DNA from: Sminthopsis crassicaudata
Taxonomy: Eukaryota
Assembly (NCBI RefSeq): GCF_048593235.1
Contig: NC_133620.1
Location: 291,725,765 to 291,789,764 of the forward strand
Length of the DNA stretch: 64,000 bases
Reading direction: 5' to 3'
Shown one piece after another: positions 35,795 to 57,550 of this stretch. The notes beneath the pieces are model-generated. The model worked only from the letters and a program-made list of their open reading frames with translations. It had not been told where the DNA came from and did no database searches. Each line of letters begins with the position of its first letter. Position 1 is the first letter of the stretch. Both the position numbers and the translations under genes were made by a program.

Positions 35795-38690
35795 TGAATG
35801 CCCACTCTGCATTCACTACTGCCAGTCTCTCCTGGGCCCAAAGAGAAGTCTCCAGCCACTGTCTTTTGTAGTGTTTAAACCAATTTTACCAAGCTTATCT
35901 CATTTGGGGGTCTTCAGAGATCTCTGGCCACCATTTCATAAAAACTATGGTTTAGATACATGACAGAGCACTCAAGAGCAGTTGCATGCAAGCTCAGGAT
36001 CTTTATTCACATGTCCATATGCTACCCTCTGACCTCCTCACACTATTAGTTCCTACTCCCCAGCAGAGCTCCTGGTGAAAAAGGGCAAATTTCCTTGTAC
36101 TCACAGCTTAAATAGGGTCTATGAGGTCACACACAGCCAATCAGAGAAGGAGAAGCCTCCTGGTGATGTGGATCTCAATGTGACCAGAGTGCCCGTCCAC
36201 AAGGTGGTCCCTACAACTATACAGCAAACCCACTTCCAGGGATCTCAGGCAAAGCCTGTTTACTTCCTGTTGCACTGTATGTGACTCCTCCTCCGACCCT
36301 TATAATTCCCTTCTCTTGTATATTGGGGACCACTCATCACATCAAGCTAACTTTAACATCAACAATAGCTCGCTTAATGAATGAGATTACAGAGTGTCTA
36401 TAACAGAACAAAGGCAAACAAAAGTAAAACAGCAAGAACTAGGCCCAACAGGGGCCATAACCAAGCATGGGTAACAGTATTTAATCCACTCAATACATTC
36501 ATACTCCAGGAGGTAGGATGTCACAAGTCTGTAATCACAATTGTATGCACCTTTTGGTAAAGAAAGACACAGAGGAGGGTGTACACAAGAAAAGTCATGT
36601 CCTGTATCTCTGCCCCACTAACTTTGGCAGGTGGGCGTGTTGGTTCTTCACCCACTGATTTAGAGGCTTTGTCTATAAATGGAAAGCAGGGCGAAGCCTC
36701 TCCCCAGGTCACCATATGAGTCAGGTAGCCATGGAAAAAGCGCACAAGCCCATTGTCCATTTATCAATCTGTAGGTATTGCACGTACCAGCTACACTGGA
36801 GCTGTGTCTGCTGTCTCTGATGTCACGGTCAGGAGGGACATGGCTGCCATCAGTGACTGGAAAGCTGTTGACATCTGGCTGGTCTTTCTGGGTTGTCATC
36901 ATTAGCAACTGGTCCTCACCATCTGGTCCTTTTCTTCTTGGTTCCCCAGGTCATGGATGTTCCTGGTTAGGATCTTCTTTTCTGCTGTTGGGTCTGCATC
37001 TGGAACAACAAGAGCACACCCAGGTCCCCAAACCCTCACCCAACCAGGGCCCTTCCAGATGCCATCTAAGCCTTTCGTCATCACTGTGGAGAGAGGGCTC
37101 TTGTCCTTGTTGGCCAGTCTGTTAGTTTGAAATTAGGCAGTTAGTTAGTTAGGCAGAAGCTTGTTCCAGAAGCGCGTTGCAGGGGTAAGATCCAGGAAGT
37201 GAGAAAATTGTAAGTAATTATATATATATATATATACCACTTCTAAGCAGACCTGTGTGAGTCAGGTGGAGGGTCTTGTAAACCCCAATACCCCCATTTT
37301 TTTGCTTAGACAGGAGCATTGAGGGTACAATTAGCCCGTTCAACAATGGCTTGTCCCATAGTGTTACAGGGGATGCCAGTGGAATGGGCAATGCCAGATT
37401 CAGTGCAAAAGGACCTAAAGGCAGAAGATGTATAAGGTGGTCCATTATCTGTCTTAAGTGCACGTGGAACTCCTGCAATGGAGAAGCAATGATAAAGATG
37501 GCGGATCACATGTCTAACTGCTTCTCCTGATTGGGGTGAAGCCATGAGGAATTGAGAGTGTGTATGCACGGTTGCATGGATGCACTGCCTTTTAATATGA
37601 GTAACGTCCATTTGCCATAGGACATTGGGTGACTTACCACGAGGATTCGTGGCAGTATTGTGAAGAGCAGGACGAAAAGGAGCACCAGTAGTACAGCGGA
37701 GAACAATAGCTGCAGCTTCTGCTTTAGAGATGCCATACAGCCTCCGCCATGAGCGGGCAGATAAGTGAAACGAAGCATGTGCCTCATGGGCAGGGGAATC
37801 ACAGCACAGGCCACACAAAGGGTAAAGAAGGGCATTCTATCTTATCACACTCAACTATGGGACCAGTGCCTGACATGCAGAATAAAAAGGAGTGCGGCTC
37901 TGCTGTTCAATGCATCCTGAGCCTGATGGAGATCCGTGATGGTGGATGTATGTGGTAGCTGCTGGATGGCTTGGCAGGCATAAAGACTGTCTGTGATAAT
38001 ATTAATTAATAGCCTCTTTATACCATTGCATGGCATTATGAGACTTATAACTCACTTTTCTGTGTCGAATTATAGGGGGTGTCTTGAGTTTCCTCTCTGT
38101 ATATTGCGGCCCTGTGATTTTGGTAGCATCAGTATAAACACTGGGGCCTTGTACTGGCTCTGAGGAAAGAGATCCAGCGGTGATACTTACCTTTAATCTC
38201 TTGTATAACTGTTTAAATGGGGGAGAAGTATGCAAAGGTGCTAAGGGACAAAGCTGTAACAGGACAGCCTGCATTAAATCATCCTGGGCAATAGCAAGCA
38301 CCTGCTGTGCTGGTATACCAAGAGACAATTGAGGGGGTGGCCCCAAGATAAGTACGGCCTGTTGGCAACATCGCCACAAGAAGGAACCAAGTCCCTCAAT
38401 CTTATCAGTCAGAATGTGTGAAGGTCTAGTAGGGTACAGCCACTCTATGGGGTGCTCACCTCAGTGCAGTGCAGCGAAAAAGGGCTCATCATCAAATGCC
38501 GACAGCATCCGGGCTGTGAAGGATCAATGCTAGAGGTAGGACAAGGGCAAAGGAATAGCATTGCAGTGCTGCACGGGCCTCTGCAGATCACGATGATGGT
38601 GATGTCAGAGCAGAAGGGCCTTTCAGAATGTCAGAAAAGGGGTGCACAACAGAAGGGGGGTTCGGATGAGTGCATTTCAGCCATTGTAAA
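35795..38690 (-). mobile_element. Decayed class II ERV 3' half: RT thumb/RNase H/integrase, env TM remnant, PPT, 3' LTR (35795-36304)
   Basis: IN motifs LWQMDVTH, LKTDNGPPYTS, GQAIVERAN; C-terminal WKGPGWVRVWGPG; RNase H VYTDAT; hydrophobic WLWPLLGLVLAVLLLF at ~36410-36470; PPT AAGAGAAGGGAAT. Multiple stops and frameshifts; 5' part replaced by L1. Confidence 0.9.
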
Positions 38691-44459: not shown

Positions 44460-46256
44460 CTAGGGCCGTTTGCAGGAGCCATGTTGCTCGATTCCCCCGT
44501 TTCTTTTATCTTCATGCTCTGGATGAATTTGGATAGGGCAACTACATCTTCCTGGGATCCATGAGTCTCCTTCTGTGGAAATACAAAGAAAACCTCGACC
44601 CCGAGTTATTACCTTAACAGGGCCCCTCCACTTCCCATTAACATCCTTCCACATCACATATTGTGGGACGGGCCAGGCTACAGAGCTGGCCCCTTAACCT
44701 TTTGTGTTCCTCTTTGTTTGAGGAGGAATGATGTAGTGAAGAAAAAATTAAGTCAGCTGGGGTATGGGATATGTTATTCAATGTGAAGTAATTAATGGTT
44801 TATAGTGATTGAGTAAGTCTGTCCTTGGGGGATTTCTCCTCCCCCCCCCTTTTGTTTTTCATTGACTTTCAAAGTTTTATTCTTACCTTCTACTTCTGAT
44901 TTTGATAAGCAAATTTTTATAATATTATACAAAGAGAGGGTGATGTAAACTGTGTCCCCTTTAATCTTTGGGGGAAGGGTGGTCCTGAGTCTCAAATCCT
45001 CCAGGTCTCTGGGAAGGACTCCACCCTTTTTGTTTTTAGGGAAACTCCCAGATGGTAATCTCTTTTTCAATTGGTCAACTTGGCCAGAGGCATGATCACT
45101 AACCTCAATTGAAAGGTCCCCCAGCTCCAGGCCAAAACAACCCCCATTTAAAGGAAGGCCTGTCAATCCACCTCTGCTAATTCCTAATTAGGAATGCCCA
45201 CTGAGTTGCTTCTCAATGTAAACCCATCTTTGCAAAAATCCTAAACGGAATTTGCCCGCTAAAAAAGCTATTTTCTTAGTGTAATTGGGGTTTGCGAATT
45301 TCTTCGTAAAGCCTGTGCAATCAGCCAGGGAATGCCATTGCTTGTCAGGAGATTTCTCAACCCTCATTTCACACACCTCAACAAGGGTATCAGCAGAGAC
45401 TGCCTGAGGACCTTTTTCTTCACATGCTTTGTATAAAATTTCTTTGGAGACTTCCCATTCACTGATAGTGATTTTGGGGCCACAGGGGCACCAGGAGCAT
45501 TGTTGTAAACATCCTGTAGAAATGCTCTTATTTTTCTTAATCCTTACTGGCTATTTTAACATGATTAACTGTAAAAATTTAAGATCTTTCCCTTCATCTT
45601 TCAATCCTTTAACTATTTGCTCTCCCATTGTTATACATCTTCTTTTGCCCTGAAAAATGAAAGTAAAAGTGAGCAGGGCTGATGAGCAGCCCTACTGGAG
45701 CTTTCCCCTTACTTTTACTGAGGCCTTTTGTCCTCCAGCTACCCAGGGGGTACCAATCACTATAATACCATCTTCAGTATCATTCTCCTTCAGGTCTCTG
45801 CTTCCCTTGTGGGCTGCTTGACACTATCAATCTCTGTTATGACAGGACCAGGGCCCCATATTGGGAGCCATTTGTTGTGAGCAGCACAACATAAGTCATT
45901 TATGTTATTTAGTGGCAGTTGAAAATAAGGAAACAGAGTTGTTGATGATTCAACAGAGACTTTTAGTAAGAGAAATCATGCTGGATATATATTTTAAAAC
46001 CATAGGTTATGATGAAAAGAATTGCTCTGTAACCAATCCTGATTTCTGTTTTCTATGATCGAATTCTCTGAAGCATGTTGTTATTTTCTAGAGACTCAAT
46101 CTTGTGTAAGGTTCACAATGCCCTAGTAAATGTGCCAAGACTTTATGTTTTCTTATGATTTCAAGATTAAATGCACCCTTGATTAATCTTAGGAGGGGAA
46201 CATTCCAGTTACTGAATCTCTAGCTTCCTGGTAGTTCTCTAGTATCAGTGCACACA
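44460..46256 (-). mobile_element. Collapsed class II ERV: 5' LTR (~45873-46256), PBS-Lys1,2, gag matrix, foreign LTR, integrase C-terminus
   Basis: PBS TGGCTCCCAATATGGGGC (45853-45870) after ...CAACA AA; MA-like MGEQIVKG...QCSWCP...EWEVSKEILYKA; IN tail MWKDVNGKWRGPVKVITRGRGFLCIS. Confidence 0.8.
44661..45373 (+). mobile_element. LTR lying between the gag MA and IN remnants
   Basis: TG start at 44661; right terminus matches the 30253 LTR in opposite orientation. Confidence 0.65.
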
Positions 46257-46692: not shown

Positions 46693-49600
46693 TGTAATGT
46701 TCTTCTCTAAAATATATTGTTCAGGGGGCAGCTAGGTGGCGCAGTGGATAGAGCACCAGCCATGAATTCAGGAGGACCGGAGTTCAAACCCGAGTCTCAG
46801 ACACTTAACACTTCCTAGCTGTGTGACCCTGGGCAAGTCACTTAACCCCAGCCTAAGGAAAAAAAAAAATTAAAAAAAAATAAATATATTGTTTTCTGGG
46901 AGCAGGTTTCTTGGGGGGCTTCTGGGAGCAGCCTTTGTTTCAGTTCAAAGTAATAATCACCTCAAATGCAGCCAGGAGTTAAAGTCCAAATCCATTACTG
47001 TCTCTTTCCAAATCTTATCTCCTTCACTTGGGACTCGGCTAGTTTTCTGGAGGACTTCCAGATCTTGGTTTCACACACAGGACAGTGTTCTCCACTTCTC
47101 TGTCTTCCTATGTTCTTCCCAACTTGTGAATCTCCACAAATAAATCCTGGCTCTGAATCTCCCGAAGTGCATCCTGGTTGAGGCTCCTAGCTTATATATG
47201 TTCTCTTAAAATTATGAATCTTGCAGAACTCTAGTAAATACTAAGTACATAATCATTGCCTCTATCAATTCCACTGACTTAGCAATCAGTAAGAATCCTA
47301 ATATCTTCCACTTTCTTTTGATTTAGAACATAGGTGGCCATGACCTCCCTGACTTCTCAAGAAGGTGAGAACCCCAAAAAGAAGGTGATCACTCCTTCCC
47401 TGACTGCTCAAAAAAGGAGTGAAAACACCATAAAAGGAGGTGATCATGCCCTCCCTGACTTCTCAGGAAGGGAGATGAAAACACCAAAAGAAATGGGAAA
47501 TCAAATCAGATTAGCGGGTTTCTGAAGGGGCTCACTCCTAAAACAGGTATACATAAATCCATCAATATGGGGGGTATTACACATAATTATAGAAATTACA
47601 TAAGCACATAGTAACATAACACAGGCTAGTCGTGCTGTAACAAATAACATGAATCAACATGAGGAATTATACAGGTCCATAGGTCCTAGAAATAGTCCAA
47701 AAGGAATCTATTGTCCATTAGTTCATGTGCCAGGAATCCATTAATTCCTGCAAGTTTTGAAGTCCTGCAATAGTCTCATCTTATGTTAGGGAATCCAATG
47801 ATTCCTGATGGTTTTCAAGTCCTGAAACAATCTCATTATCAGTCATGCTCTTTCAGCGTCAAATGTTTCTTAGATCTTCTCCTTTGTTTTGTTTCTCTTT
47901 TCCTGTCTCTCTCCAGGTGCTTGTTGCCACCCATCTGTTTCCTTCTCAATCTGTAGGAATATAAGCAAACCCTCTCTCCCAAGCGTTAACCTATCTAGTC
48001 CCTTCTCTTTACCACTTTCTAAATCTCTCCTCATCATCTGGCAATTACATTGGAGCTGTTTGCACTGGACACTGCCCTTCTGTTGGGTTAAAAAGCCTGT
48101 ATTCTCCCCAATTGTAATCCCTTTCTGCTCTCTGATTACTTTTTGGCTGATAGATCAGGTAATCCATTTCTGCCATGTGATTGCTTTTCAGCTGATAGAT
48201 CACATCAGAATCCTGAACTTCTTTGGGTGAAAAGTCAGCTGCCATTATGCCCCACCTGTCTTAGGGCTGGGCCCTGCCTCTCATTTCCCTGGGTCAATCT
48301 ACATACTGAGGCCCAGTGGAAGCCCTTGTGGCATTTTGGACATAGGGTTTTGGGTTTTATTCTCTTACCCTGTCCTCTCACTCCATCTCTTTGCCCACAC
48401 TGAGCTCTTAGATGTCCAACTTTTCCACATTGAAAACACTAACAAGTTTCTCTAGAAGTCCCTTGCCAAGAGGGACCCTGTCTTCCCATGTTCATCATAG
48501 TCTGCGTGTAATAAGCATTTGTGCCCACTGTGGCACAGCGTCTTATGATCTCCTCTAAAGGAACATCTTTATGTAGTCCCCATATAATTCTTCTGCAAAC
48601 CTCATTAGCATTTTTCTTAGCCAGTTGTCTGGTCATTATTTCTATAGCTGCAATGGTTCTTGTGACAGCTGTTTGCAGACGTACCGCAAAATTCACAAAG
48701 GGTTCATTGGGATCTTGCTCTATTTTTGTGAAGGCTTCCCCTTGACCTTTTTGTCCATGGAGGGAACCCCAAGCTTTTTGTTGCAGCAGTGGCAATCTGT
48801 TCATAAGCTGTTGTGAGGTAATTCATCTGTTCTGAATTCTCTCCATACTGGTCTTTATCTGCTAGTTGGTCAAAAGTGACTTGTACATTAACTCCTGTTT
48901 GCCTATTGGGTCTGACTTGAATCCTGCATAATTCATGATACTCCGAAAGCCACAACAAGTTTTGACCTTGCTATGGATTTCCAGTTACTAGGGGTTAAGA
49001 TTTCATAAGCCAAATTATCTAGTAACATTTTAACATAAGACGATGTAGCCCCATAAAGAGTGCAACTTTTTTTCAAATTCTTAATTTTTTCTAGATCAAA
49101 GGGAGTGCATCTTCTCCTTTGTTGACTTGAAAGGACAAGCTCTTCAATCACAGGGTATGCATCTATAAAATCACTTATATCCTCTCCTTCATTTTTTGCC
49201 TTAACTAAGGCTTTTTCTTTTTTTTTTTTTTTCTTTTTCTGAGGCTGGGGTTAAGTGACTTATCCAGAGCCACACAGCTAGGAAGTGTTAAGTGTCTGAA
49301 ACCAGATTTGAACTTGGGTCCTCCTGAATTCAGGGATGGTGCTCTATCCACTGTGCCACCTAGCTGCCCCAAACTAATGCTTTTTCTAATTTTGTCATAG
49401 GCTGCTTAACAGGCAATTCTGTTTGTGTCACTGCCTCTTCCCCTCCTCCTTCTTCCTCCACCCATGAAGGGTTAATTGAAGGAGGTAAGTCAGGGGGTTG
49501 GGAAATGCTCCTGTTGTGAAGTGCCACACTCAGAATTGTACTTAACTCCATTCTTAACTGATTCTTCATCCTTTTCACCTACTTTATTTGGCACCTTTAC

Positions 49601-50330
49601 CTCCTGCTCTTTCTTCTTTTTTCTTATTTTTTAAAGCCAGTTGTATTAAATTATATGTATAAAGTATATTTTTGGAAATTGAGTTTGGATTGGAATTGTA
49701 ATATTCACCTAGTTGCTCTCCTACTAATTTCTACTCATCTGGATTCAATTCTTTTTCCTTAGAGAACCAAGGAGATGTGTACTGTACAGTCTCTAAAAGT
49801 TCAGTGATCTGCTCCCAAATTATAATCAAACCTTGGCTTTTCATAAGTCTGAAAATGCTCTCTAAACATTTTCCTTGAATTGAAAAAGATGGCTGTTTCT
49901 AAACATCTGTCCCATTTTAGCTGAAATTCTATCTTAGCTCTTTAACAAAGTTACTCACCCTAATTTCTGGGTCATAGATGAAGGTTCTTGGTCCAACATT
50001 CAGGTACCAAAATGTAATATTCTCTTCTCTAAAATATATTGTTTTCTGGGAGCAAGTTTCTTGGGGGGCTTCTGGGAGCAACCTTAGTTTCAGCTCAAAG
50101 TAGTAATCACCTCAAATGCAGCCAGGAGTTAAAGTCCAAATCCTTTATTGTCTCCTTCAAAATCTCATCTCCTTCACTTGGGGCTTGGCTAGTTTTCTGG
50201 AGGCCTTCCGGATCTTGGTTTCAATGTTCTCCACAAGACAGCCTGCCACCACTTCTCTGTCTTCCTATGTTCTTCCCGACTTGTGAATCTCCTCAAATGA
50301 ATCCTGGCTCTGAATCTCCTAAAGTGCATC
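46693..50330 (-). mobile_element. Older class II ERV, gag retained and pro-pol deleted; 3' LTR 46693-47303, truncated 5' LTR ~50013-50330
   Basis: gag ATG GGA CAG at 49915; MHR IEQDPNEPFVNFAVRLQ; Zn knuckles CFQCGKVGHLRAQC and CPKCHKGFHWASVC; jumps to IN tail (RLFNPTEGQCPV); decayed PBS TGGTACCTGAATGTTGGAC at ~49991-50009; SINEs inserted at 46722-46880 (TSD AAATATATTGTT) and 49215-49370. Confidence 0.9.
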
Positions 50331-53950: not shown

Positions 53951-54605
53951 CCAAATCAGGAAAGATAGTTTTTCAAATGTCCTGTTGTTAAGGAGAAACA
54001 AGATTAGGGTTCACCTGGTCAGTGTCGGGTTTGGTGAAAGAATTTGCATACTGGGACAGCTAGGTGGCACAGTGGATAGAACATCAGCCCTGAAAGCAAG
54101 AATTTGACCCCAGACACTTAACACTTCCTAGCTATGTTGTTGCGAGCTGTCGTCTCCAGAAGCTGCTGGATCGCTCTCTGGGAAGAGATCTGCTGTGTCT
54201 ACTCAAATCTCTCAGACAGATTCTTCTTCCTGTAACGAACCGTTGTCTCCAGGCAGTTGCTGTTAACTCTTGTCCAAAGAAGTGACTTCCCTTCCTGCAG
54301 AGAGCCCCGTCAAGCCTGATGCAATTCAGAGTCTTCTTTTCTCTTGAATCCTGGCTCTGAATCTCCTCCAACTCTTATCCTTCTTCAGGCCGATCTGCTC
54401 TCTGCGCCCAGTGCTGTCTCTTTTTATCCTCCCAGAGAATGGGCGTGGGATAATGCAAAGGCTTCTGGGAAGAACCACCCCAGCCAATGAGCTTGCCCCC
54501 TCTATCAAGTCAACCTGAGTTCTCACCTTGTAATTGTCCAGAAAACCTGAATTCTCACCTTGTCACCATCCAGACAACCTCAGTTCTCACCTAGTAATCC
54601 CAACA

Positions 54606-54622
54606 TCTCCCCCTTTCTTTTG
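54606..54622 (-). other. 3' polypurine tract
   Basis: CAAAAGAAAGGGGGAGA abutting the 3' LTR TG. Confidence 0.9.
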
Positions 54623-54904
54623 ATTTAGAACATAGGACAGTCATGACCTTGAAACATAAATCCATCAATATGGGAAGTATTGCAGATAATTACATAAATT
54701 ACATAAGCACATAGTAACATAGTAACATAACACATGCTAGAAGTATATAACATAATCATAATCATAAATTGAAAATTTATAAATGTCCATAAGTCTATTG
54801 TCCATTATTCTCATCTTGTGTGAGGAAGTCCAATGATTCCTGCTGGTTTTTAAGTTCTTTAACAGTCTTCTTATTATCCATGCTCTTTCAGTGTCAGATG
54901 TTTC

Positions 54905-56425
54905 TTAGATCTTCTCCTTTATTTTGAGGTCTTTCTCTTTTTCTGTCTCTCTCTGATGGACAAGGCGAATATGACTTGTTGGCACCCATCTGATTCCTTC
55001 TCCTGCTGAAGAAATACAAGCAAACCCTCTCCCCCAGGCAGTTAACCTATCTGGTCCCTTCCATTCACCACTTTCTGGATCTCTCCACATCACCTGGCTA
55101 TTATCTAAGGACAGTGGAGATGCTCTCACTGGACACTGCCCTTCTGGTGGGTTATAAAACCTGTCTGCTGGAGCCAGCGCATCTTTGTCAAAAATTAGAA
55201 AATTAATGGTATAGAGAACTAAATTTAGAAGTTCCCTAGGGCTACCTGTGGCTCCCCCTTTCTTTTGTTTTTGGAGGAGTGTCTTAATATCTCTGTTTCT
55301 TCTCTCTACTATTGCCTGCCCTTGAGGATTAAAGGGTATGCCCGTGGTATGTAAAATCTTATACTGTGCACAAAAGTGTGTAAAATGTTTGGACGTATAT
55401 GCAGGTCCATTGTCTGTTTTTATTGCTTGTGGCACACCCATAATTGCAAAAGCTTGTATAAGGAATTCAGTGACCACTCGGGCTGTCTCTTTTGCTGCTG
55501 GCATTGCAAATGTGAATCCTGAAAAGGTGTCTACCACGACATGAATAAAAGATAGACGACCAAAAGATTTATAATGGGTCACATCCATTTGCCAGATTTC
55601 ATTGGGTCTCAAACCACGAGGATTCTTCCCTGGAGGGAGTGTAGGAGCATGGAAAGGAAGACAAGCTGTACAGTTTTTTACTATGCTCCTAGCTTCCTCT
55701 CTTGTGATTCCAAATTGTAAACGTAAAGCTCGAGCAGCCTGATGATATTTAGAATGAGATTCTTGTGCTTCCTGAAATAAAGGACTACTGGCTAACATGG
55801 TTAGAAGGCTATCTGCCTTTGAATTTCCATCAAAAATGGGACCTGGAAGTCCACTATGTGAGTGGACATGCAAGATATAAATCTTGCCTGGATGTTTTCT
55901 CACTTGCTCTTGAAGTTCCTTAAAGAGCTGATAAATATTGGAGGCTGCAAATTTTATTTGGGCTGTGGCAATTCTTTGTACTACACCTACTGAATAGGCT
56001 GAATCAGTAATTATATTTACGTCTCCTGGGTAATAAGTGAGAGCTAGCATGATAGCAAATAATTCATTCTGTTGAGTGGATTGAAAAGGAGTCCTGATTA
56101 CTCTCTTTATGGTTAAATCATGAGAGTATATGGCACAAATATTTTCTTTGGAGGCATCTGTAAAGATTGTTGGTCCTTTAAGAGGAACCTTAGAAACCTT
56201 TTCTTCAAAAATCCATCGCCAATTATGTAGTAGCCGGGTAATCTTTAATGGAGATCCATGTGCAAAATTTGGAGCGGTGGCCAATAAAATTTGCCATTCT
56301 GGGATGTTCTCACAGCATACATTAATCTGTGCGTTAGTATAGAATGTGTATATTTTTTCAGGACTTATCCCAGATAATTGTGTTACTCTCTTAATAGCCT
56401 TTAATAAAATCCTAGCCACAAGCAC
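54905..56425 (-). CDS. Retroviral pol fragment: RT connection, RNase H and complete integrase; open frame
   Basis: RNase H FTDAS/NELFA/TDSAY/NSKAD; IN HHCC (HSKYH...CTAC), WQMDVTH, KTDNGPAY and D(35)E to IVERRN; C-terminal WKGPDRLTAWGRG. The listed start is GTG; the first in-frame ATG is at 56050 (381 aa). Confidence 0.9.
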   Translation of the reverse strand: MLVARILLKAIKRVTQLSGISPEKIYTFYTNAQINVCCENIPEWQILLATAPNFAHGSPLKITRLLHNWRWIFEEKVSKVPLKGPTIFTDASKENICAIYSHDLTIKRVIRTPFQSTQQNELFAIMLALTYYPGDVNIITDSAYSVGVVQRIATAQIKFAASNIYQLFKELQEQVRKHPGKIYILHVHSHSGLPGPIFDGNSKADSLLTMLASSPLFQEAQESHSKYHQAARALRLQFGITREEARSIVKNCTACLPFHAPTLPPGKNPRGLRPNEIWQMDVTHYKSFGRLSFIHVVVDTFSGFTFAMPAAKETARVVTEFLIQAFAIMGVPQAIKTDNGPAYTSKHFTHFCAQYKILHTTGIPFNPQGQAIVERRNRDIKTLLQKQKKGGATGSPRELLNLVLYTINFLIFDKDALAPADRFYNPPEGQCPVRASPLSLDNSQVMWRDPESGEWKGPDRLTAWGRGFACISSAGEGIRWVPTSHIRLVHQRETEKEKDLKIKEKI

Positions 56426-56444
56426 TGGAATCAGGACTGTGTCT

Positions 56445-56462
56445 GTCCCTGTTCGGGCGCCA
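56445..56462 (-). other. Primer-binding site 2, tRNA-Lys3 (perfect 18-mer)
   Basis: TGGCGCCCGAACAGGGAC, identical to the HIV-1/MMTV-type Lys3 PBS. Confidence 0.95.
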
Positions 56463-56513
56463 AATTGCGAAGGTCTGGTCTAGCTCTTCTTGTCAGGATA
56501 AGCAAAAGTCCTT

Positions 56514-56532
56514 GCCCCACGTGTGGACGCCA
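56514..56532 (-). other. Primer-binding site 1, tRNA-Lys1,2-like (imperfect)
   Basis: TGGCGTCCACACGTGGGGC two bases after the LTR, versus canonical TGGCGCCCAACGTGGGGC (one mismatch, one insertion). Confidence 0.9.
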
Positions 56533-57550
56533 ATTGTTGCGAGCTGTCGTCTCCAGAAGCTGCTGGATCGCTCTCTGGGAAGAGATCTGCTGTGTCTACT
56601 CAAATCTCTCAGACAGATTCTTCTTCCTGTAACGAACCGTTGTCTCCAGGCAGTTGCTGTTAACTCTTGTCCAAAGAAGTGACTTCCCTTCCTGCAGAGA
56701 GCCCCGTCAAGCCTGATGCAATTCAGAGTCTTCTTTTCTCTTGAATCCTGGCTCTGAATCTCCTCCAACTCTTATCCTTCTTCAGGCCGATCTGCTCTCT
56801 GCGCCCAGTGCTGTCTCTTTTTATCCTCCCAGAGAATGGGCGTGGGATAATGCAAAGGCTTCTGGGAAGAACCACCCCAGCCAATGAGCTTGCCCCCTCT
56901 ATCAAGTCAACCTGAGTTCTCACCTTGTAATTGTCCAGAAAACCTGAATTCTCACCTTGTCACCATCCAGACAACCTCAGTTCTCACCTAGTAATCCCAA
57001 CACTATGTGATTCTGGGTAAATCTCCAATTGCCTCAGAAAAAAAAAAAAAAAAAAAAAAGAATTTGCACACTCAGTCTCCAAGTTAAAAGACAAAGATTT
57101 ACAGCACTGCTTGATAGTGGGTTATTGAAGGGAAATCTAGCTAAGACGAATCTAGAAGATAATTTTGCAGGAAAAAGAAACAAAGATTAGATTGATATGC
57201 TAATATTATGATTTAGAGGTACAATTGCAGAGTAGTAGGAGTAGTGTAGTTCTCATCATTTCGTTCTACAAGTTAGGAACCAACTGAATCAGTATTAAAT
57301 TACTACTATTGGCCAGTGTTGTTTGTGGTACTCCCAAGGCCAGCTAGCCTTCTCAGGCCTTGCAACTTTTTCAACTTCATCACTGTACAAGTTATATTGG
57401 TATTTTTCAATTTTTCTTCAATCAACCAAGAACCAATTGATTATGTTCTAATCACTGTATCCAACACTAGGAATACAAAAACAAAATGGGCACTTCCCAT
57501 CCTTAAGGAACTTAACATTCTAATGGTGGAAAAAAGTGTGTGTGTATGTG

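Follow-up and report, generated by a model that had tools for sequence, protein, structure and literature searches.

The LTR-flanked element at 54138–57002 (minus strand, 2,865 bp) of the 64,000-nt stretch of DNA analysed here (the window) is an unexceptional, one-time by-product of an already described clade of endogenous retroviruses (ERVs), the env-less MEBrv3. The copy is unique in the assembly and internally deleted, and it probably formed when reverse transcriptase switched from one CCAGTG hexamer to another on a full-length RNA template, so that 3.6 kb was skipped.

Structure of the element and its target site

The element splits a SINE, the 5′ part of which (54053–54137, plus strand) ends in the left target-site duplication CTATGT (54132–54137), while the right duplication (57003–57008) opens the 3′ part with its poly(A) (57003–57059, plus strand); the SINE's own 13-bp duplication, with one mismatch, is found at 54040–54052 and 57060–57072. 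The 5′ LTR (56535–57002) and 3′ LTR (54138–54605), both on the minus strand and 468 bp long, have TG...CA termini and are identical at 468/468 positions. By comparison with long-LTR copies the 3′ LTR is of the short type, in which the end at U5 corresponds to priming at the first primer-binding site (PBS1). The identical LTRs, the CTATGT duplication and the insertion into a SINE, all of which had been described in the initial annotation, were confirmed. Tandem repeats of 32 nt were also observed in U3 (54505–54595 and 56902–56992), and the LTRs of relatives, of ~375–470 bp, vary widely in repeat copy number and in a central segment.

Reading inwards from the 5′ LTR, all on the minus strand, the element contains PBS1 (56514–56532), in a variant of the tRNA-Lys(CUU)-type site that is widespread in the family; a spacer ending in CA (56466–56513), which equals the extended-LTR end of PBS2-primed relatives; PBS2 (56445–56462), a perfect complement of the tRNA-Lys(UUU) 3′ end; 22 nt of leader kept behind PBS2; and the deletion junction (56423–56428), a 6-nt direct repeat, CCAGTG, common to leader and pol. 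A stop-free frame of 524 codons (54905–56479) runs from ~17 leader-derived codons through the end of the reverse transcriptase connection to RNase H and integrase, with its first in-frame ATG at 56050, and is followed by an env-less 3′ untranslated region (54622–54904), colinear with full-length family copies, and by the polypurine tract (54606–54621). The missing interior reported earlier, which includes the reverse transcriptase core, is a real deletion, but env does not belong to it, since the lack of env is a family trait; loss of env in the deletion event is ruled out by the stretch from pol stop to LTR, which matches that of full-length copies, where it measures ~300–350 nt.

Family identity, copy number and age

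Of the features established for betaretrovirus-like (class II) ERVs, the window copy has the tRNA-Lys PBS, the duplication of 6 bp and an integrase with HHCC and D,D(35)E, and relatives have Gag p10/p24 and two zinc knuckles. These class II features, the absence of LTR differences (0/468) and the existence of thousands of near-identical relatives bear out the earlier description of the element as betaretrovirus-like and young. Between HHCC and the beginning of the C-terminal domain, its integrase and the published MEBrv3 Pol disagree at 8 of ~225 residues (counted by eye), and on this sequence comparison the element is assigned to MEBrv3 (marsupial endogenous betaretrovirus 3), a published env-less betaretrovirus-like clade of dasyurids. 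In its description, this clade is env-less and IAP-like, has identical LTRs and has been amplified in dasyurids (Harding et al. 2024, PMC11334065). Its published representative measures 7.3 kb, has a different LTR sequence, is shown with one PBS in the leader and carries gag and pro in separate frames, whereas the full-length copies here are ~6.4 kb long, have two PBSs and mostly join gag and pro in one frame; the main text of that paper makes no mention of PBS, primer binding or frameshift (PMC11334065). In its supplement, the tail of the MEBrv2 record (~10500–11106) resembles, by eye, the reversed integrase end of the window element's family, apparently a neighbouring insertion.

A 26-nt pol motif has 2,939 matches at ≤1 mismatch in the assembly, corresponding to ~2,900 pol-bearing copies, and a 251-nt pol query returned, among the best 40 of 1,829 candidates scored, 39 further copies, which match at 249/249 positions and lie together on a single contig. 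L191 and L193, two near-identical loci whose flanks agree, lie 1.3 Mb apart and are likely to represent a segmental duplication, so that duplications of this type slightly inflate the motif counts. Full-length relatives, as sought in the initial annotation, are present; they measure ~6.4 kb and have no env, and in some of them the frames are open and the LTRs identical. Identical LTRs, an open frame and the loss of env are ordinary traits of this family and nothing special to the window copy: LTRs are identical in 15/42 pairs (found in 77 loci, among which young copies are over-represented) and the RNase H–integrase frame is open in 29/35 copies.

The identical LTRs indicate that the window copy is young, and its pol agrees, with 2 private substitutions in 1,523 nt and with the nearest of 38 copies 3 differences away. 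The finding of 0/468 LTR differences bounds divergence below ~0.64%, which, at a generally assumed substitution rate of 1–2 × 10^-9 per site per year, gives an age of up to roughly 1.5–3 million years.

The deletion junction and its origin

Compared with a natural full-length copy, the window copy lacks 3,598 nt, and CCAGTG, present at both parent sites in leader and pol, marks the join; a 6-nt repeat would fall at a random junction with a chance of ~0.001. This leader–pol junction has 1 match at ≤2 mismatches in the one 3.24 Gb assembly searched, by which a multi-copy junction is rejected, although a parent mini-provirus carried on a different haplotype would escape this search. A looser pattern gave 2 matches, the second being another mini-provirus with a different junction, and a 161-nt junction query was spanned in full at 100% by the window alone among the best 40 of 1,628 candidates. 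We then compared mini-proviruses at 29 loci (the window included), chiefly on two contigs and picked via chosen motifs; mapping succeeded for 28, and no two of these had the same junction string, even in two pairs whose pol-side points lie 1–2 nt apart. The closest analogue, L189, has the same leader breakpoint, on an imperfect repeat; its LTRs are identical, its frame is open and its junction, too, is single-copy, as is that of L031. Descent of the window copy from L031, which has a nearby breakpoint, was rejected, the junction being different and the pol 11 differences off, compared with 3 for the nearest copy.

The window copy has no tRNA marks and its PBS1 is still the variant form, so that the simplest route to it would be a switch of template at the 6-nt repeat on the minus strand. 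Full-length env-less RNA would have been packaged into an intracellular particle of germ-line cells and primed at PBS1 by tRNA-Lys(CUU); during minus-strand synthesis the enzyme would have left pol and re-annealed 17–22 nt behind PBS2, after which a normal second transfer and integration would have produced identical LTRs. The open frame would then reflect youth and not selection.

The window copy itself has no decisive mark of reverse transcription, its break lying away from the PBS end and no tRNA insert being present. Elsewhere in the family, 5′ breakpoints cluster at the primer sites and in the early leader. PBS2 followed by an unusual next base occurs at 164 loci genome-wide; among 30 sampled, the break coincides exactly with the PBS2 end in 17, and the rest comprise 11 variants of the leader and 2 other ERVs. 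A pattern of PBS2 plus tRNA continuation has 27 matches, 8 in tRNA-Lys(TTT) genes and 19 in ERV copies, and in the latter the tRNA-Lys(UUU) read-through, with the complement of the CCA end included, halts at or before the anticodon loop. Such read-through can arise only from copying a mature primer tRNA, and, as judged from these copies, deletions in the family are made during reverse transcription. Loci with read-through include L165, L167–L170, L174, L175, L177, L178, L180, L182 and L183, around positions 1500–1545. Defective HIV-1 proviruses that result from aberrant strand transfer have been described, including some with a tRNA-Lys3 insert behind the PBS at the junction; these resemble the MEBrv3 relatives in that internal deletions are made during reverse transcription, but are somatic and have one PBS, whereas the copies here are germ-line and have a second (Hardy et al. 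2025, PMC12657518).

A junction that lies on a 6-nt repeat and occurs once would equally fit a full-length copy that integrated at this site and later lost 3.6 kb by chromosomal microhomology-mediated repair, since such a repeat marks that process as well. The initial annotation took a single copy to mean a post-integration deletion; the single copy is real, but the implication is not forced, as many deletions in the family were made during reverse transcription. Little time has been available for repair since insertion (0/468 LTR differences, 2 private substitutions), and it would leave the crowding of breakpoints at primer sites and the tRNA read-through unexplained, so that we consider it unlikely.

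Still less probable is the proposal, put forward in the initial annotation, that a helper packaged and copied in trans an RNA from which the interior was missing beforehand, and that the window copy belongs to a mobile RNase H–integrase mini-family. Helper-like full-length copies with identical LTRs do exist, and gag-only elements of the family are trans-mobilised. However, the assembly holds one match to the window junction, the very outcome that the proposal had named as telling against it, the junctions of L189 and L031 are single too, no junction is repeated among the 28, and the leader and gag start are gone. Nor is packaging of a deleted RNA needed, as deletion during reverse transcription suffices. 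Compared with non-autonomous subfamilies of the IAP I-delta-1 or ETn type, we found no junction shared by many loci and a kept leader of 22 nt. In this assembly, the trans-mobilised mini-family is largely refuted. Retroviral packaging signals lie in the leader and gag start, and with the putative packaging region lost from there the window copy is predicted to be a dead end.

An assembly artefact, by collapse of LTRs or a false join between repeat copies, might be permitted by thousands of near-identical copies but is very improbable given the exact 6-bp duplication, the cleanly split SINE, the similar junctions at other loci and the differences in 27/42 sibling LTR pairs, which indicate that LTRs are not generally collapsed. 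Splicing was also rejected as the cause of the deletion, because the junction precedes the putative donor and the next base is not GT.

Coding potential of the remaining frame

The 524-codon frame matches RNase_H, Integrase_Zn, rve and IN_DBD_C and keeps H-x3-H-x23-C-x2-C, D,D(35)E and the four RNase H acidic positions; these domain matches and residue spacings confirm the stop-free frame and intact catalytic residues noted previously. An integrase-containing protein of 381 amino acids had also been suggested, and the ATG at 56050 and this length are correct. Its production is nevertheless unlikely, as the start lies inside RNase H, 8 out-of-frame ATGs precede it in the pol part and the family's putative splice donor is deleted in the window copy. 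A domesticated integrase gene is not supported, in view of the youth of the copy, the open frame common to 29/35 copies and the same 8 upstream ATGs.

Two primer sites and two LTR lengths

The family leader contains two primer sites, a tRNA-Lys CUU-like site followed by a tRNA-Lys UUU site, and the spacer before PBS2 ends in CA, like the end of an LTR. The spacer is followed by another next base at 388 loci genome-wide, and of 30 sampled, 15 continue directly as host DNA, 14 represent internal variants and 1 has been rearranged. At 14 of 20 loci, 14 of the 20 having been preselected for the pattern, the 3′ LTR is extended by 69 nt and a 6-bp duplication lies at the extended end, whereas other copies, including the window copy, stop at the short LTR and also have a 6-bp duplication. 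These two kinds of end, each with its duplication, indicate that both sites prime and both ends integrate, and it is very probable that either lysine tRNA can prime, each giving its own LTR length. The 69-nt extension consists of PBS1 and the spacer and was seen at the 3′ LTR ends of L141–L147 and L152–L154; further extended copies or apparent solo LTRs are L113, L115, L119, L125, L126, L132, L139 and L140, with 6-bp duplications where both ends were seen.

In the open-access literature (PMC, bioRxiv) we came across no natural ERV of a mammal in which two PBSs in tandem both work. Engineered HIV vectors with two PBSs were reportedly described by Voronin and Pathak in 2004; they share with the MEBrv3 lineage here two primer sites on one RNA, but are artificial. 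In the Drosophila gypsy element a single tRNA has both a 5′ and a 3′ site, and the 5′ site alone is needed, whereas the MEBrv3 lineage here has two tandem 5′ sites for two tRNAs, each apparently yielding integrated copies (PMC1635307).

The two primers may also meet in a single round of copying. All 14 of the tallied mini-proviruses that break at the PBS2 end have a short 3′ LTR; L220, a complex three-LTR locus outside this tally, ends long. Variant PBS1 was found in 2/33 PBS2-end junction copies compared with 21/47 intact-leader copies (Fisher p = 1.3e-4, an optimistic value as the copies are related; the window's leader was left out when the loci were drawn). L170 carries a tRNA-Lys(CTT) copy at the PBS1 site together with tRNA-Lys(TTT) read-through. 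On balance, these data favour a relay in which both lysine tRNAs can act within one copying round: priming would occur at PBS1, the plus strand would be extended on a short PBS2-primed strand, and a last, error-prone transfer would follow. Such a relay would spawn many mini-proviruses. A tRNA-Lys(CTT) copy was also observed in L182, beside tRNA-Lys(UUU) read-through.

The gag-only partner and the gag-pro fusion

A gag-only subfamily of ~3.5 kb keeps the leader and gag and has one common junction to the 3′ end, with 2,954 matches to its motif in the assembly; gag is open over 607–609 codons in 10/13 copies checked. To judge from these sequences, this is a real, multi-copy, non-autonomous partner of the family. 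The window itself holds an older gag-only copy (47294–50320, minus strand), and its ~79% identity to young ones points to an old origin of this form. Gag-only copies were seen at L141–L146, L152–L157, L221 and L223–L225. Non-autonomous ERV partners are known from IAP I-delta-1, ETn/MusD, cattle ERVK D-type and recKoRV (PMC1331978, PMC10924933). As these are described, they are deleted derivatives of an active clade, into which pattern the gag-only subfamily fits; they are also multi-copy, with a common structure and the 5′ part kept, whereas the window element is single-copy and has lost its 5′ part (PMC1331978, PMC10924933).

In nearly all pol-bearing copies in which the end of gag was seen, gag continues into protease without a change of frame (at least 800 motif matches), the exceptions being one young recombinant and one older copy. 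The single gag-pro frame was also observed in older copies that are ~94% identical. A second, divergent type of gag matrix region, seen in 9/30 leader-anchored copies (L007, L010, L011, L013–L015, L017, L025 and L027; ~1770–2200), points to recombination between gag lineages. It is possible, though doubtful, that the MEBrv3 lineage is a two-primer, two-partner retrotransposon in which the relay is combined with mutual dependence between members with fused Gag-protease and gag-only partners. The weak step is the hypothesised dependence itself, by which the enzyme-coding members would need free Gag from the gag-only partners and the partners would need enzymes; alpharetroviruses make a fused Gag-protease and replicate alone, which argues against it.

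Genomic setting and significance

The exons flanking the element are MSH5-like, CLIC-like, G6B and ABHD16-like; they support the MHC location given in the initial annotation, and we take this gene set to be MHC class III from the gene order. The element looks intergenic: the ABHD16A-like gene starts ~3.5 kb away, and a position inside a gene was rejected, as none of 66 ORFs between 50.0 and 60.5 kb gave a credible exon match, although short exons could escape such a scan. In eutherians, LY6G6 genes lie between G6B and ABHD16A. Here, no LY6-type match was found in 32 cysteine-rich ORFs at 29–47 kb, and the longer or cysteine-rich ORFs of the whole G6B–ABHD16A interval (29000–60400) gave no LY6-type or Ig exon match. 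This interval is ERV-rich and includes further decayed ERV pieces on the minus strand at 37309–37836, 44463–44693 and 45191–45550 (integrase core, integrase C-terminus and a weak Gag p10 match).

As a young insertion in MHC class III, the window copy is a possible population marker, but carries little weight by itself. Its left flank is present in two samples of the same organism. What matters more is the family, with its apparently two working primer sites, two LTR lengths and by-products of failed transfer. LTR annotation and dating that assume a single LTR end will mis-cut the MEBrv3 lineage, and in its thousands of young copies primer choice, PBS repair and the stops at tRNA modifications may be counted in the germ line from sequence.
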